DNA of 50,826 bases, taken from an uncultured Candidatus Saccharibacteria bacterium (GTDB taxonomy: Bacteria; Patescibacteriota; Minisyncoccia; UBA6257; GWB1-50-10). The translations under genes were made by a program, and so were the position numbers. Of this stretch, positions 1,408 to 50,826 are shown in pieces. The notes beneath the pieces are model-generated. The model made no database searches and was not told where the DNA came from. It saw only the letters and a list, made by a program, of their open reading frames with translations. Positions within the stretch are counted from its first letter, which is position 1. Every line of letters starts with the position of its first letter. The DNA lies in NCBI GenBank assembly GCA_964639325.1, contig CAZXDO010000006.1, forward strand, positions 1 through 50,826. Reading direction: 5' to 3'.

Positions 1408-1419
1408 AAAACCATAAAA

Positions 1420-1468
1420 GTTATCCACACCAACTTGGGGGTTCCCGACACCCCCAAGTTGGTTTTTT
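1420..1468. repeat. GC-hairpin / DnaA-box element, copy 1 (terminator-like)
   Basis: GTTATCCACA (box TTATCCACA at 1421-1429), then stem CCAACTTGGGGG 1430-1441, loop TTCCCGACA 1442-1450, stem CCCCCAAGTTGG 1451-1462, and T6 at 1463-1468. Lies 13 nt after the yqeY-like stop. Confidence 0.9.
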
Positions 1469-1675
1469 ATACACATTTTTTGAATTTTAAGGAGGTTAGT
1501 GGATTTATTGATTTAATACTTTTTGCTTATTTAAGCTATTTTTTTATTTTTAAACCATTAAATTTAAAAATCTACTTGACATATATTTTAGATAGGGAGA
1601 TGCTTATAATAAGTATCAAAGGTCGGGCTCGGGCCGACGGGAAACGGTCCGAATTACTTAAAAATTAGGAAAAGC

Positions 1676-4514: not shown

Positions 4515-4558
4515 TGTTTTGTAATCAAATATTAATAAATAACCCAATAAAGTTAATA

Positions 4559-4581
4559 AACAGCTCAATATTTGAGCTGTT
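4559..4581 (+). terminator. AACAGCTCA-family hairpin, copy a
   Basis: AACAGCTCA 4559-4567, loop ATATT, TGAGCTGTT 4573-4581, then TT. The same stem sequence recurs at 17183 and 35741. Confidence 0.6.
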
Positions 4582-4593
4582 TTCAGTTAAAAA

Positions 4594-4642
4594 GTTATCC
4601 ACAACAACTTGGGGGTTCCCGACACCCCCAAGTTGGTTTTTT
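4594..4642. repeat. GC-hairpin / DnaA-box element, copy 2 (terminator-like)
   Basis: TTATCCACA 4595-4603. Stem CAACTTGGGGG 4605-4615, loop TTCCCGACA 4616-4624, stem CCCCCAAGTTG 4625-4635, then GTTTTTT. Confidence 0.9.
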
Positions 4643-11550: not shown

Positions 11551-11592
11551 CAACTTGGGGGTTCCCGACACCCCCAAGTTGTTGTGGATAAC
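11551..11592. repeat. GC-hairpin / DnaA-box element, copy 3 (box on the 3' side)
   Basis: Stem CAACTTGGGGG 11551-11561, loop TTCCCGACA, stem CCCCCAAGTTG 11571-11581, then T and TGTGGATAA 11583-11591. Confidence 0.9.
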
Positions 11593-11639
11593 TTGAAATG
11601 TTAATTGGTGTGGTTTGTTGTGAAAAATAGTGCTAATAA

Positions 11640-17155: not shown

Positions 17156-17182
17156 GGAACTAGGTTTGTAATTTTTTAAAGA

Positions 17183-17216
17183 AAACAGCTCAATAGTTTT
17201 TGAGCTGTTTTATATT
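17183..17216 (+). terminator. AACAGCTCA-family intrinsic terminator, copy b
   Basis: AAACAGCTCA 17183-17192, loop ATAGTTTT, TGAGCTGTTT 17201-17210, then TATATT. Confidence 0.65.
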
Positions 17217-23244: not shown

Positions 23245-23510
23245 GCCCCCAGGATTTGAACTAGAATCAATTTAGCGAAAGCAATTTTGTTAATATTCAA
23301 GGCGCGAGGAGCGTGGGGTGTTAGATAACACGCGAGCGACGAGCAACGCAGAAGATAAACAAAATTGTTCCGCCCGAAGGGAAGCAAAATAATAAGCAAT
23401 TTCTTCGTTACTCCTCGTCAATGTATGCTCCGCATACACTTTCCTCGTCGTGTCTTGAAATTGCTTATTATTTTGCTTCTAAACTTAATTCTAGTTCAAA
23501 TCCTGGGGGC
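23245..23510. repeat. 266-bp element built from nested perfect inverted repeats (structured ncRNA or MITE-like element)
   Basis: Outer 23-bp IR 23245-23267 / 23488-23510. Inner 23-bp IR 23381-23403 / 23457-23479. 10-bp IR 23282-23291 / 23358-23367. Small hairpin 23423-23428 / 23432-23437. Confidence 0.85.
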
Positions 23511-34071: not shown

Positions 34072-34665
34072 ATGGCAGAAGAAAAAAAAGATACTTCCGT
34101 TGAAGCTACGGAAGAAAAAGAAGAAGAAAAAGAAGAAGTAAAAGAAGAAGTAAAAGAAGAAAATACTGCTGCTGAAAAACCTAAAGAAGCAAAAGAAGAA
34201 GCTTCTTCTGAAAAAAAAGAAGAACAAGAAGAGAAAAAAACAGAAGACAAAAAAGAAGAAAAAGTAAAAGACAAGGAAGAAGATGATGAAGAAGTAGAAG
34301 TTCCTGAAAAGTTTAAAGACATTGTTGAAAAAATAGAAAAAATGACCGTTGTTGATCTTGCTGATTTAGTTTCTCTCTTAGAAAAGAAATTTAAGGTTTC
34401 TGCAGTTGCTAGCGCTCCGGCAGGGGGAGGAGCAGCAGGCGGAGGAGAAGAAAAATCTGAAGTTAATGTAGTTTTGAAAGAAATTGGTGAAAAGAAAATA
34501 GAAGTAATTAAGGCGGTTAAAGAAATAACCGGTCTTGGATTACAAGAAGCAAAGGGCATTGTTGATGGTGCTCCGGGTAACATCAAAGAAAATGTAAAGA
34601 GAGAAGAAGCTGAAGAAATGAAAGGTAAACTTGAAGAAGCCGGCGCTACCATTGCTCTTGAATAA
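34072..34665 (+). CDS. rplL: 50S ribosomal protein L7/L12 with about 75-aa acidic N-terminal extension
   Basis: The C-terminal 120 aa are canonical ([25 protein letters not shown]...[19 protein letters not shown]...[10 protein letters not shown]). The first about 75 aa are an E/K-rich low-complexity region. Confidence 0.9.
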
Positions 34666-34787: not shown

Positions 34788-34818
34788 CAACGTGGGGGTT
34801 CCCGACACCCCCAAGTTG
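34788..34818. repeat. GC-hairpin element, copy 4 (one stem mismatch, no adjacent box)
   Basis: CAACGTGGGGG 34788-34798, loop TTCCCGACA, CCCCCAAGTTG 34808-34818. The nearest TGTGGATAA is at 35000-35008. Confidence 0.85.
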
Positions 34819-34836
34819 TCGTCGTTTTACTCCTCC

Positions 34837-34904
34837 CCAGAAACCCTCGTTTTCTGGCGCTTCGCTGTTTTCCAACACGGGGAAAATACTCTTCCCCGAC
34901 CCCC
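34837..34904 (+). repeat. GC-rich two-hairpin repeat, element B
   Basis: H1 is CCAGAAA 34837-34843 / TTTCTGG 34851-34857. GCTTCGCT lies at 34859-34866. H2 is CGGGGAA 34878-34884 / TTCCCCG 34892-34898. CCCCGACCCC lies at 34894-34903. Same layout as 44659-44720. Confidence 0.75.
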
Positions 34905-35059
34905 TTTGTCGTTTAATAGCTTGGTGGTTATTTGCTAACTAATTCCTTTGTTATGTCTTCAGGAATAATGTTGTATTGTTAGAATTTCATATTAAACATT
35001 GTGGATAACTTATTTTTCTCCCATTAAGCTTGATCTAAGTTTTTTTCATTTTTGAAAAT

Positions 35060-39605: not shown

Positions 39606-39721
39606 GTGGGGAATAGCTAATTTTTAAAATTTCCTAAAATCTGGGGATAACTTTTTTCTTATATTTTAATTCCCCCCTTATTAAAGGGTTTTTTAATTTA
39701 TAAGTTTATCTTTTTTACGCT

Positions 39722-39749
39722 TTGACAGCTAATGTCATGGTGGTACAAT
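39722..39749 (+). promoter_or_regulatory. candidate mra (dcw) promoter
   Basis: TTGACA 39722-39727, 16-nt spacer, TACAAT 39744-39749. Confidence 0.5.
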
Positions 39750-39761
39750 AAATAACAGAAA

Positions 39762-39809
39762 TGGGGAGATGTGGATAATTATGTGGATATCTTTCAAATC
39801 TGTGGATAA
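39762..39809 (+). promoter_or_regulatory. array of same-orientation TGTGGATA boxes (DnaA-box-like, possible MraZ operator)
   Basis: TGGGGAGAT 39762-39770, TGTGGATAA 39770-39778, TGTGGATAT 39783-39791, TGTGGATAA 39801-39809. A further TGGGGATAA lies at 39642-39650. Confidence 0.6.
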
Positions 39810-39925
39810 CCCATTTCTAATAAAACTACCGTCTCTGTTTTTTTAAAAAAAGTCCGACCCATGCTTTTCCCTGGTTCTTAACAAAGAATCAAAAACAGAG
39901 ACGGTGGTTTCCCTAAAATAAATTT

Positions 39926-41594: not shown

Positions 41595-41695
41595 GTCGTG
41601 AAATACTAAAACAATGGAATATCGGAAAAATAATAAATTATATAAAAAAATAAATGATAATAGCGGTTGCCTAAAGACAACCTAACACTATCGGG

Positions 41696-43291
41696 ATGAA
41701 CGCCAGATTAATTTTTTTAAACTTAATATTCTTAACCCTCTTTGCTCTTATTGGTTTTAACCTGTATGAATTACAGGTAAAAAACAATGATTATTATTTC
41801 AAAAGAGTTCAGGCTCGTAATGAGTATGAAGAGAAACTCTACTTTCAAAGAGGAAAAATTTTTTTAACCGACCGGCATAATAATGACATTCCTGCAGCTA
41901 TTAATAAAAAGTATCCTATAATTTACGCTGTCCCTAAAGAGATTGAGAATATAGAAAAAACTGCTACAAACTTATCAAGTATAATTGATATCCCAAAAGA
42001 AGAAATTGTTAAAAAGCTAGATAATCCGGATAGCCTGTTTTCTCTCTTAGTTGAAAAAGCTGCCGATAACCAAATCAGGGACATAAACAATCTTAAGCCT
42101 GAAGGGATATATATTAACAACAAACAGTATCGTTACTATCCTTTTAATAAACTTACATCCCATGTTCTTGGTTTTGTCGGGGTTAATGATAAAAATGCAG
42201 AACCTACGGGGTTGTATGGAGCTGAGAGAATGTATAATAGCACCTTAAAGGACGAGAGCGATATTTTTTTAACAATTGACCGTACTTTACAGGTAGAGTC
42301 AGAAAATATTCTTCATGAATTAATTGAAAATTATGAAGCGATCGGAGGTTCGGTTATTATTCAAGATCCTAAAACCGGGAAGATTCTTGCCATGGCTAAT
42401 GAACCTAACTTTGATCCGAACGAGTATAATAAATATCCTGTTGGCAGTTTTATTAACCCTGCTGTTCAGTATGTTTACGAGTCTGGATCAGTATTTAAAC
42501 CGCTAACTATGGCTATTGGAATTAATACGGGTAAAATTACTCCCGAAAGCACCTATTACGACTCGGGGTCAATAACTCTTAACGGAAAAAAAATTACAAA
42601 CTGGGATCACAAGGCTTACGGTAAAATTTCTATGACAACAGTAATTGAACGTTCTATAAACACGGGAGCTGTTTATGCAGAGCAGCAGATTGGCCACAAA
42701 GATTTTATTTCTTATATTAAAAAATTTGGCTTTGGGGAAAAAACCGGGATTGATCTTCCCGATGAAGTTGAGGGAAGTTTAGCTAATTTAACAAAAAACG
42801 ACACGCGAGAAATTGATTTTGCTACTGCTTCTTTCGGACAGGGCACAGCCGTTACTTCGATTCAACTTATTAATGCTTATTCAGCTATTGCCAACGGTGG
42901 TCTTCTTATGAAACCTTACATCAATAAAGCAAGTAAGCCGTACATTAAAAGAAGAGTGATTAAAGAAGAATCATCACGGCAAGTTTCTGAAATGATGGAA
43001 TCGGCCGTAAAAAAAGCTCATGTAGCTTCTATTCCGGGATTTAGAATTGCTGGTAAAACCGGCACAGCCCAAATTCCTGATTTTGAAAAAGGTGGTTATT
43101 CAGAGGAATATGTTCATACCTTTGTTGGATTTGGCCCGGTTTCTGATCCTGAATTTGTTATTCTTATAAAAATTGATAAACCCAATGTGGTTTTAGCCGG
43201 CTATACTGTTGTACCCGCTTTTAAAGAATTAGCTCAATTTGTTCTAAATTATTATCAAATTCCTCCGGATAACTTAGAAGAAATAGAATAA
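41696..43291 (+). CDS. ftsI: penicillin-binding protein, FtsI-like division transpeptidase
   Basis: TM anchor, PBP dimerisation region, and motifs SVFKP, SIN and KTGT. Confidence 0.85.
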   Translation: MNARLIFLNLIFLTLFALIGFNLYELQVKNNDYYFKRVQARNEYEEKLYFQRGKIFLTDRHNNDIPAAINKKYPIIYAVPKEIENIEKTATNLSSIIDIPKEEIVKKLDNPDSLFSLLVEKAADNQIRDINNLKPEGIYINNKQYRYYPFNKLTSHVLGFVGVNDKNAEPTGLYGAERMYNSTLKDESDIFLTIDRTLQVESENILHELIENYEAIGGSVIIQDPKTGKILAMANEPNFDPNEYNKYPVGSFINPAVQYVYESGSVFKPLTMAIGINTGKITPESTYYDSGSITLNGKKITNWDHKAYGKISMTTVIERSINTGAVYAEQQIGHKDFISYIKKFGFGEKTGIDLPDEVEGSLANLTKNDTREIDFATASFGQGTAVTSIQLINAYSAIANGGLLMKPYINKASKPYIKRRVIKEESSRQVSEMMESAVKKAHVASIPGFRIAGKTGTAQIPDFEKGGYSEEYVHTFVGFGPVSDPEFVILIKIDKPNVVLAGYTVVPAFKELAQFVLNYYQIPPDNLEEIE

Positions 43292-44619: not shown

Positions 44620-44740
44620 TTTGTGATCCCAACCGGATATTTCACGTCGCTTCGCTCCCTGAAACCCCTCGGTTTCAGTGCTTCCGCCACGGGAAACTTC
44701 CGTTTCCCGACCCCTTCCCCGGTTCAAATCCTGGGTTCAA
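44620..44740 (+). repeat. GC-rich two-hairpin repeat, element A, bounded by a duplicated tRNA-Glu 3' end
   Basis: TTTGTGATCCCAACCGGAT 44620-44638 matches 44776-44794 at 18 of 19 nt. H1 is CTGAAACC 44659-44666 / GGTTTCAG 44671-44678. H2 is CGGGAAAC 44690-44697 / GTTTCCCG 44702-44709. Then CCCGACCCC and GTTCAAATCCTGGG 44722-44735. Confidence 0.8.
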
Positions 44741-46954: not shown

Positions 46955-47008
46955 GATAACCAACTTGGGGGTGTCGGGAACCCCCAAGTTGGTGTGGATA
47001 ACTTTTTT
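46955..47008. repeat. GC-hairpin / DnaA-box element, copy 5 (loop inverted)
   Basis: GATAAC, stem CCAACTTGGGGG 46960-46971, loop TGTCGGGAA 46972-46980, stem CCCCCAAGTTGG 46981-46992, TGTGGATAA 46993-47001, then CTTTTTT. Confidence 0.9.
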
Positions 47009-47707: not shown

Positions 47708-47758
47708 ACCCCGGTCACACGCACCCCATGCGTGCATACTGCCGTTGTACTACGGCCC
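47688..47758 (-). tRNA. tRNA-Pro (anticodon GGG), no encoded CCA
   Basis: The reverse complement folds as follows. Acceptor CGGGCCG/CGGCCCG (C1-G72), D arm GTAC-AACGGCA-GTAT, anticodon arm CACGC-ATGGGGT-GCGTG, T arm CGGGG-TTCAACT-CCCCG, discriminator A. Confidence 0.9.
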
Positions 47759-47951
47759 GGAGCGAAGCAGAAATGCAAAAACGTTAGTTTTTGAATTTCT
47801 GATGAGCGATCGAGACGCAAACTTTGTTTACGGCCCGAAGTGAGGGAAAAGTATAAACGAAGTTTATGTTTTTCACGAACGCCCGGAGACGCAAACTTTG
47901 TTTACGGCCCGGAGCGAAGCAGAAATGCAAAAACGTTAGTTTTTGAATTTC
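47750..47951. repeat. direct-repeat block upstream of tRNA-Pro, incorporating the tRNA 5' end
   Basis: An identical 50-mer lies at 47750-47799 and 47902-47951. An identical 26-mer lies at 47811-47836 and 47885-47910. TACGGCCCG (complement of tRNA positions 1-9) occurs three times. Confidence 0.9.
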
Positions 47952-47978
47952 TAATAAAAAACCAGTTTCCATTATAAT

Positions 47979-50692: not shown

Positions 50693-50826
50693 CACGAATG
50701 AAATGAGTGATGACGGGTATGGATTCAAACCATTTTGCCCCGTGTTGGAAAGTATCTAAACCCACGGGTTTTCAAAGTCAGGGGGTCGGGGCAAAATATG
50801 TGTTTATGTGAGATTCCTTCCCCGGC
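50693..50826 (+). repeat. GC-rich repeat, element C, ending in a second copy of the tRNA-Gln 3' end
   Basis: 11-bp stem 50732-50742 / 50787-50797. Contains CCCCGTGTTGGAA and GGGGGTCGGGG blocks. GATTCCTTCCCCGGC 50812-50826 repeats 50676-50690, and the window ends inside it. Confidence 0.8.

Follow-up and report, generated by a model that had tools for sequence, protein, structure and literature searches.

Why does a near-identical hairpin, usually joined to an exact DnaA-box 9-mer, recur between the genes of an uncultured Candidatus Saccharibacteria bacterium? The question arises from a stretch of 50,826 nucleotides (GenBank assembly GCA_964639325.1, contig CAZXDO010000006.1, positions 1-50,826), hereafter the window, for which an original prediction had proposed either a recent spread similar to that of repetitive extragenic palindromic (REP) sequences or miniature inverted-repeat transposable elements (MITEs), or selection for a sequence-specific partner such as DnaA. 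We find that the repeat is young, real and species-specific, and that the DnaA boxes are mostly part of it. The element is probably a REP-like dispersed palindromic repeat, non-coding and specific to its species, which multiplied into the intergenic DNA of one Paceibacterota lineage and turns over fast between sister species.

The window was searched for the pattern CAACTTGGGGG-N9-CCCCCAAGTTG with at most three mismatches allowed, and five matches were obtained; 100 dinucleotide-preserving shuffles gave none. These are the five near-identical hairpins that had been predicted, one with a stem mismatch and one with its loop reverse-complemented. Two further copies were read from L029, a contig of the same species that runs 5.8 kb past the right end of the window, and more occur on metagenome contigs described below. 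The repeat unit is about 44 nt long and is made up of a 31-nt hairpin (12-bp stem and 7-nt loop; predicted folding energy -17 to -27 kcal/mol), one variable base and an unpaired 12-nt tag, TGTGGATAACTT. The proposed abutment of the DnaA 9-mer on the hairpin holds for four copies of the window, with a 1-nt spacer, but the conserved flank is the whole 12-mer and not just the 9-mer. The seven copies are as follows.

Copy 1: 1418-1461, minus strand; tag AAGTTATCCACA at 1418-1429 (that is, TGTGGATAACTT on the minus strand), spacer C at 1430, hairpin 1431-1461 with plus-strand loop TTCCCGACA; starts 23 nt past the yqeY stop codon; stem lengthened by an extra C-G pair (1430/1462), GTTTTTT directly after.
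Copy 2: 4592-4635, minus strand; tag 4592-4603, spacer A at 4604, hairpin 4605-4635 with plus-strand loop TTCCCGACA, then GTTTTTT; 46 nt from the end of the hairpin to the next start codon.
Copy 3: 11551-11594, plus strand, between rpsI and mreB; hairpin 11551-11581 with loop TTCCCGACA, spacer T, tag TGTGGATAACTT at 11583-11594; no T-run.
Copy 4: 34788-34818, plus strand; hairpin alone, mismatched (G.A) at stem position 5 and without adjoining tag; begins 21 nt past tRNA-Val and is directly followed by a GC-rich repeat of another family.
Copy 5: 46961-47004, plus strand; hairpin 46961-46991 with plus-strand loop TGTCGGGAA, spacer G, tag 46993-47004; the exact reverse complement of the copy 1 arrangement; starts 14 nt past the rmuC stop codon, with 22 nt from the end of the tag to the next start codon.
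Copy 6: L029:14057-14100; stem position 5 mismatched (A.C), hairpin first and tag downstream.
Copy 7: L029:14498-14541; perfect copy, likewise with a downstream tag; it ends 12 nt ahead of the start codon of ychF.

The density is thus seven copies in about 56.6 kb (the window and the adjoining 5.8 kb), or roughly one per 8 kb. According to the open reading frame (ORF) and tRNA maps, all seven are intergenic and start 14-90 nt past the upstream gene, always between co-directional genes on the leading strand. Nearly all genes of the window, which has a G+C content of 33%, lie on the plus strand, and the plus strand is taken as the leading one because GC skew is positive along the whole window. 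The nearest copy pairs, copies 6 and 7 (441 nt apart) and copies 1 and 2 (3174 nt apart), are direct repeats. Depending on the copy, the tag precedes or follows the hairpin, and its distance to promoters varies. The earlier placement of the copies at the 3' ends of transcription units is correct in that they stand downstream of genes, but it overstates the case, given how close copy 7 and the tag of copy 5 come to the next start codons.

Independent assemblies of the same species, 99.9% identical and derived from several samples of the Joint Genome Institute (JGI) and from Logan runs, contain every copy unchanged and in the same orientation. The copies are therefore no assembly artefact, a possibility that the original prediction had raised. 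The orientation of the loop is likewise fixed at each locus across assemblies from different samples.

The history of the insertions was examined in a sister species, here called species R, with MreB, YchF and L10 proteins 98%, 93% and 88% identical and syntenic DNA of 87-92% nucleotide identity. The comparison covers four orthologous sites, those of copies 3, 4, 6 and 7. At the last two, the PEBP gene, a small gene and ychF are collinear between the species, both copies are missing from species R, and the alignment opens gaps of 90 and 65 nt. On its right side, the 65-nt gap stops where the copy 7 tag stops, and copy 7 is placed where species R has an operon junction of 13 nt between the small gene and ychF. 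Because neither empty site contains the tag and the gap ends where the tag ends, the tag was brought in with the hairpin rather than being a pre-existing target.

The two other sites have fared differently. Downstream of tRNA-Val, species R has a decayed copy (L037:4360-4409) that reads CTAACGGGG, 22 extra nucleotides and TTCCCGACA-CTCTCAAGTTG; the promoter of the next gene comes directly after it, and the tag and the 241 nt found in the window are missing. Between rpsI and mreB, species R contains a different perfect 31-nt hairpin, CAACTGAGGGAAG-TTCAA-CTTCCCTCAGTTG (L041:4207-4237), which occupies the same 31 alignment columns as copy 3. The two hairpins are equal in length and in the outer CAACT/AGTTG, four stem pairs are changed on both sides, and the hairpin of species R is tag-less; identity is 91-93% in the flanks and 61% in the hairpin. 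A second copy of this hairpin follows rplL (L037:4231-4261), with the loop flipped (TTGAA vs TTCAA). Within about 15 kb of species R, there is no intact copy of the repeat and no TTATCCACA.

The comparison of orthologous sites, suggested in the original prediction, was extended to more distant relatives (L021, L024 and L026; MreB 86-88% identical), whose approximately 54 kb contain no repeat copy and no TTATCCACA either. Between rpsI and mreB, these genomes carry ordinary terminators that are unrelated to each other and have no shared core, which argues against a conserved selected signal. At the same junction, species S (L027; MreB 90% identical) has a perfect palindrome, TTGTGATTGGC-taa-GCCAATCACAA, followed 2 nt later by the same 13-mer tag, TTGTGGATAACTT (L027:879-918).

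Beyond these relatives, 185,579 GTDB species representatives were scanned for the stem around an arbitrary 9-nt loop; the only matches, 10 hairpins, are ascribed to chance, since none has the loop of the repeat. No repeat was found in IMG/VR, phages or plasmids. When JGI metagenome contigs were scanned for the loop core, three short contigs were recovered: L011 and L012, with two copies each beside genes that are absent from the window, and L013, with one tag-less copy after a tRNA gene. The L013 copy was considered as an ortholog of copy 4 and rejected, its tRNA being tRNA-Pro and not tRNA-Val. A covariance model of the repeat (R1), run over all fetched relatives, detected no diverged copies; its weak matches were confined to the decayed tRNA-Val copy (12 bits), the hairpin of species R (15 bits) and two hairpins of L007, a contig of the distant Candidatus Paceibacterota metagenome-assembled genome RS_9_47. 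The L007 hairpins (200-226 and 1215-1235) are terminator-like and have the stem CTTGGGGGT/ACCCCCAAG with other loops; the stem word CTTGGGGGT may recur more widely in the phylum.

The element is thus repeated, intergenic and lineage-restricted, and from one orthologous site to the next it may be intact, missing, decayed or replaced. Near-identical intergenic copies, lineage restriction and such differences between sister species together constitute REP-type behavior, and the proposal of recent REP/MITE-like spread is borne out by two empty sites, one decayed site and one site with a different hairpin in species R, as well as by the absence of the repeat from the GTDB representatives.

How might such copies arise? 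They would be made in trans by an enzyme not seen in the 56.6 kb, and the layout of a hairpin with an adjoining tag would best fit a HUH/Y1 nuclease acting on single-stranded DNA, resembling the tyrosine transposases associated with REPs (RAYTs). When the strand with the tag as AAGTTATCCACA is considered, the loop has the sequence TTCCCGACA in copies 1, 2 and 5, whereas it is flipped relative to the tag in copies 3, 6 and 7, about half of the copies (copy 4 is tag-less). The one stem position that varies in the family is position 5, where T-A, A-T, G-C, G.A and A.C occur. Perfect stems, the hot spot at position 5 and the loop flips would be products of template switching between the arms, or of hairpin resolution, inside the palindrome and not of selection on RNA; loop flips in two hairpin families, together with perfect arms and a partly compensated hot spot, are what template switching would be expected to produce. 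Loop inversion in short palindromes is familiar from quasipalindrome template switching, chloroplast hairpin-loop inversions and the flip/flop of parvovirus terminal hairpins. The repeat resembles these cases in having its spacer in both orientations with arms and flanks constant, although they are mechanisms and not families of elements. CAACTTG resembles the phiX174 origin, and AGTTGG the nicking site of adeno-associated virus; both matches are short and are taken as coincidence.

The same features could be ascribed to a structured RNA, in which the conserved 7-9-nt loop, UUCCCGACA, would be read by a protein or another RNA and serve as a processing, stability or small-RNA-like signal at 3' ends. 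Of 12 copies, taken from several contigs, 11 have an identical loop, even as stem position 5 varies among T-A, A-T and G-C; the hairpin is very stable; and copy L012a retains its pairing solely by virtue of G-U pairs, which form on the TTCC(T)GACA strand. The gene-sense strand carries the loop as TTCCCGACA in six of the seven same-species copies, a bias that is not significant (P = 0.125). However, the loop is flipped at copy 5, L011a, L012a and L012b, and the copies of the sister species are absent, decayed or replaced. Covariation in the family is not significant either: 79 of 500 shuffles reach the observed score, and a single pair changes on both sides, with three cells mismatched at that same pair. 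Because covariation is no better than in shuffles, the perfect stems are not read as evidence for selected RNA. In the Rfam search, only tRNAs reached the gathering score, and nothing credible appeared at permissive thresholds around copies 1 and 4. We regard a structured RNA as quite improbable.

A simpler role at the RNA level is that of a terminator. Three copies had been described as followed by a T-run, but a T-run stands directly after the stem in copies 1 and 2 only and in none of copies 3-7; that of copy 5 stands after the tag, and copies 3 and 4 have no T-run. Judged by these features, the appearance of a canonical intrinsic terminator is limited to copies 1 and 2. The claim that the copies can terminate transcription is thus overstated. 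Copy 2 is itself preceded by the following hairpin.

Ordinary terminator: 4558-4582, plus strand; hairpin AAACAGCTCAA-tat-TTGAGCTGTTT, precedes copy 2.

With this hairpin ahead of it, copy 2 does not serve as the primary terminator for the operon upstream. Ordinary terminators also stand ahead of both L011 copies. The stem AAACAGCTCAA/TTGAGCTGTTT (11-12 bp) is common to two ordinary-looking bidirectional terminators of the window, at 4558-4582 and 17182-17211, whose loops differ, and terminators with a shared stem are therefore not peculiar to the hairpin that had been reported; a variant, AAACGGCTCAA/TTGAGCCGTTT, is found in a relative (L027:811-836). If transcribed, the repeat hairpin would terminate only where a U-run follows (copies 1 and 2), and elsewhere it would act at most as an attenuator or as a block to 3' exonucleases inside operons.

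We next consider the DnaA boxes. The 9-mer TTATCCACA/TGTGGATAA occurs exactly seven times in the window (at 1421, 4595, 11583, 35000, 39770, 39801 and 46993) vs 0.42 expected on both strands, and all seven are intergenic, in agreement with the earlier count of at least seven. Four of the seven adjoin a hairpin and lie inside the repeat tag; when copies 6 and 7 are counted, the tag accounts for six of nine. Because the tag carries most of the boxes, the excess is mostly explained. Selection for DnaA, as originally proposed, is accordingly unsupported, the 9-mers appearing for the most part to hitch-hike on the repeat. The three hairpin-free exact boxes are still above chance (P about 0.009) and belong to the first two of the following features.

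Lone tag: 35000-35011, plus strand; 12-mer TGTGGATAACTT with no hairpin; copy 4 lies 181 nt upstream of it, and the TTGACA promoter of a 199-aa gene lies downstream.
Box repeats: 39770-39809, plus strand; three direct repeats TGTGGATAA / TGTGGATAT / TGTGGATAA, spaced 12 and 19 nt from start to start, in the mraZ leader.
Degenerate box: 1467-1475, plus strand; TTATACACA on the far side of copy 1, in the orientation of the tag's box.

The closeness of copy 4 to the lone tag has a chance probability of about 0.002. A split element was rejected as its explanation: excision of the intervening GC-rich element, about 85 of the 181 nt, leaves the two unjoined, and the sister species has neither the lone tag nor the extra 241 nt. 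The mraZ-leader boxes, two exact and one with one mismatch, lie downstream of a TTGACA-17-TACAAT promoter and are not part of the hairpin repeat. They were also considered as a MraZ operator. The published operator has three or four GTG(G/T) boxes with 6-nt spacers (10-nt period) at the dcw promoter (PMC12957436), whereas the spacers between the GTGG cores are 8 and 15 nt here, and the assignment was rejected. A near-copy of the tag, TGGGGATAACTT, stands at 39642 by the mraZ leader (39723-39905), and the leader contains a 15-nt long-range inverted repeat (39827-39841 / 39891-39905) just ahead of the start codon. A promoter inside the tag was considered as well and dismissed, inspection having revealed no consistent -35/-10 matches.

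These boxes bear on an explanation in which the unit is a host-selected regulatory module that combines a hairpin terminator or insulator with a high-affinity DnaA site. Bound DnaA would block read-through or tune the downstream promoter, and the sites would jointly titrate DnaA like datA or DnaA-box clusters. The 9-mer is the exact consensus, the hairpin-free copies exceed chance and stand before promoters or in leaders (35000 and the mraZ leader), the copies always lie between co-directional leading-strand genes, and species S retains the identical 13-mer at rpsI-mreB next to a different palindrome. Against this, species R is without hairpin and tag at two sites and without the tag at rpsI-mreB, the exact 9-mer is missing from about 15 kb of species R and about 54 kb of the more distant relatives, a decayed copy is tolerated, the tag may be on either side of the hairpin at variable distances from promoters, and the binding of DnaA is assumed from the consensus alone. 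We consider this explanation unlikely. The tag is a predicted DnaA site by its consensus, and binding is plausible but secondary: the tag may bind DnaA as a side effect, as a roadblock or titration sink, rather than existing for DnaA. Given the above-chance hairpin-free boxes and the 13-mer kept by species S beside a different palindrome, the tag sequence may nevertheless have a host role of its own; the sister species, which lacks the tag at three sites, and the more distant relatives, which lack it altogether, speak against such a role.

A further possibility joins hairpin and box into one working DNA element. Hairpins formed genome-wide in single strands, each with an adjoining DnaA site, would be nicked or resolved at the hairpin-tag junction and would serve DnaA-dependent functions in a minimal genome of the candidate phyla radiation (CPR). 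Examples would be ABC-primosome-type reloading of the helicase, or a dispersed titration of DnaA by which replication is coupled to gene ends. Each species would co-evolve its own hairpin dialect with its reader protein. Nicking or resolution at this junction would explain the flip/flop of the loop. We give this possibility little credence.

The symmetry of the hairpin raises the question of whether it acts as double-stranded DNA. Two 12-bp inverted arms around a 7-bp asymmetric spacer make a 31-bp site that could be recognized by a dimeric protein or a tyrosine recombinase, like lox, FRT and dif, with copies flanking exchangeable gene modules. Beyond this 12-7-12 architecture, direct copies do bracket small genes or operons: a 3-gene operon between copies 1 and 2, an 89-aa gene between copies 6 and 7, and a 71-aa gene between the L011 pair. 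However, species R has the gene between copies 6 and 7 at the corresponding position without the copies; this gene is therefore not a cassette brought in with them, which also led us to reject a reading as integron attC sites and gene cassettes. The gene tables of the window and L029, searched with Pfam, include no recombinase gene nearby, and we know of no similarity between the repeat and the dif consensus. A recombinase site is thus very improbable.

Gene-end hairpins may also arise from words used in DNA uptake, on which Patescibacteria are thought to depend. Inverted pairs of the Neisseria DNA uptake sequence (DUS) and the Haemophilus uptake signal sequence (USS) form terminators, although these words mostly occur singly and also inside genes, and the loops of the pairs vary. 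The repeat resembles these systems in its terminator-like gene-end hairpins with a stem sequence shared genome-wide and in its species-specific dialects, and the two L007 hairpins, with a common stem word and different loops, would suit such a word. It differs in that the arm word is confined to hairpins: nine of the ten occurrences of the 8-mer CTTGGGGG/CCCCCAAG in the window sit in the hairpins, leaving essentially no single copies, whether within genes or outside them. In addition, loop and tag, for which uptake words have no need, are conserved along with the arms. An uptake-type word is scarcely credible as the origin of the repeat.

The REP-like interpretation was weighed against the published properties of such elements. 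REPs are palindromes of 20-40 bp with an unpaired tag at one end, found mostly downstream of ORFs between unidirectional or convergent genes, and they form species-specific classes with dynamic copy numbers (PMC3733652, PMC3686654, PMC6006769). Some terminate transcription or stabilize mRNA, and some classes bind a host protein, as IHF is bound in BIME/RIP elements (PMC6006769, PMC3733652, PMC3686654). The repeat described here is similar to the REP/PU/BIME group of Proteobacteria, including its GTAG- and CGTC-tagged and RAYT-associated members, in being a small, GC-rich, near-perfect palindrome with an unpaired tag at one foot and many extragenic copies that mostly follow ORFs and stand between co-directional genes, in forming a species-specific class whose abundance differs sharply between close relatives, and in apparently containing a host-protein site, to judge by its DnaA-box consensus.

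Several observations weigh against this interpretation. In canonical REPs, the foot of the stem has an unpaired tag, GT[AG]G (or CGTC), at a distance of 0-2 nt on its 5' side (PMC6006769), with a loop of 2-5 nt or a bulged long hairpin. In contrast, the tag is a 12-mer here and not a tetranucleotide; the strand on which it lies 5' of the stem reads CCAC (...CCAC-A-N-stem), not GT[AG]G, and GTGG is found on the 3' side of the stem, at a distance of 2 nt. A 7-nt loop closes a stem that is fully paired without a bulge, and half of the copies have this loop inverted with respect to the tag. All copies are single, with none of the inverted doublets that form the larger hairpin of REPINs. The host belongs to the Patescibacteria/CPR, and neither a RAYT nor any other transposase is encoded in the 56.6 kb according to Pfam and the gene tables of the window and L029. 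No target-site duplication is seen at the two filled/empty pairs or in the flanks of the other copies, and the insertion is not clean, since the filled sites hold, on top of the 44-nt unit, a further 21-46 nt that are AT-rich. The filled/empty comparison, made between two species, fits gain here as well as loss in the sister species. The conservation of the loop and its predominant gene-sense orientation leave room for function, and the appearance of the same 13-mer in a third species (L027), where the neighboring palindrome is unrelated, along with hairpin-free boxes before genes, hints at a role of the tag itself. In view of the differences in tag, loop, singleton state, duplications and insertion sites, the repeat is filed as a REP-like variant and not as a member of the GTAG or CGTC class.

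Two other kinds of mobile DNA were compared. Bacterial MITEs include the Correia/NEMIS, RUP and ERIC elements (PMC2229807 and PMC3184786). The repeat shares with MITEs that it is non-autonomous, intergenic and multi-copy, can carry protein-binding sites and folds as RNA hairpins. MITEs, however, are usually 100-400 bp long with terminal inverted repeats and target-site duplications, whereas the unit here is 44 nt; its arms could pass as 12-bp terminal inverted repeats, but no duplication is detectable. The outside end of IS50/Tn5 contains a DnaA box (TTATACACA) as a host-factor site and is thus similarly a terminus of mobile DNA with a DnaA-box 9-mer in a conserved end. It differs in that IS50 is an autonomous insertion sequence of 1.5 kb with a DDE transposase, 9-bp target duplications and a linear end, in place of the hairpin seen here.

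Patescibacteria/CPR genomes are very small and usually thought to be poor in repeats and mobile DNA, and the gain, loss and exchange of this dense palindromic repeat between sister species show that their intergenic DNA is dynamic. The repeat can also serve as a marker for tracking strains and species. The excess of DnaA boxes and the shared terminators are mostly passengers; it would be a mistake to take them for a DnaA regulon or to predict oriC from them. Were the mobilizing enzyme to be found, the 12-nt tag on the side opposite to the canonical REP tag and the flipping loop would broaden the picture of REP-type systems. A paper search returned no description of REP-like repeats in Patescibacteria/CPR; within that search, this is the first such repeat family found for a CPR genome, a result that we regard as moderately interesting.

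A second repeat family, GC-rich and about 85-130 nt long, was also noticed. It contains two hairpins (GGGGGTCGGGGA...TCCCCGTGTTGGAAA...CCAGAAAC..GTTTCTGG) and occurs at the following places.

Second family, window: 34820-34904, 44640-44725 and 50694-50800.
Second family, other contigs: L029:12163-12280, L041:4036-4161 and L027 from about 560.

Its copies adjoin tRNA-Val, tRNA-Glu and tRNA-Gln. The copy at tRNA-Gln is flanked by an 18-nt duplication of the 3' end of the tRNA, and that of species R by a 27-nt duplication of the 3' end of rpsI, for which the window represents the empty site. The end of this repeat, TTCCCCGACCCCC, is similar to the loop and arm of the hairpin repeat. No Rfam match was obtained for it.

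The window encodes housekeeping genes: yqeY, an S13-S11-S4-RpoA-L17-L13-S9 cluster, mreBCD, dnaK/dnaJ/grpE, L10/L12 and mraZ-rsmH-ftsL-PBP-mur. The nearest relatives of their proteins carry the names Candidatus Paceibacterota or Jorgensenbacteria. Ribosomal protein L7/L12 (34072-34665) is 197 aa long and has a long, Glu/Lys-rich, internally repetitive N-terminal extension, encoded by DNA repeats at 34096-34331. Between greA and a class II aminoacyl-tRNA synthetase gene, a 29-nt inverted repeat (23245-23273 / 23482-23510; 93% complementary) surrounds a 73-aa ORF and has no credible Rfam match. The motif CCTAACACTATCGGGATG (18-20 nt) runs into the start codon of the PBP gene (41681-41698) and likewise into that of an unrelated gene on a metagenome contig (L012:1049-1068). 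Finally, direct repeats are found by tRNA-Pro(GGG) at 47751-47955, consisting of 47751-47803 / 47903-47955 (98% identical) together with 47812-47857 / 47886-47931. These duplicate the tRNA at its 5' end, TACGGCCCGG, and may be the trace of an integration or of a partial tRNA duplication.

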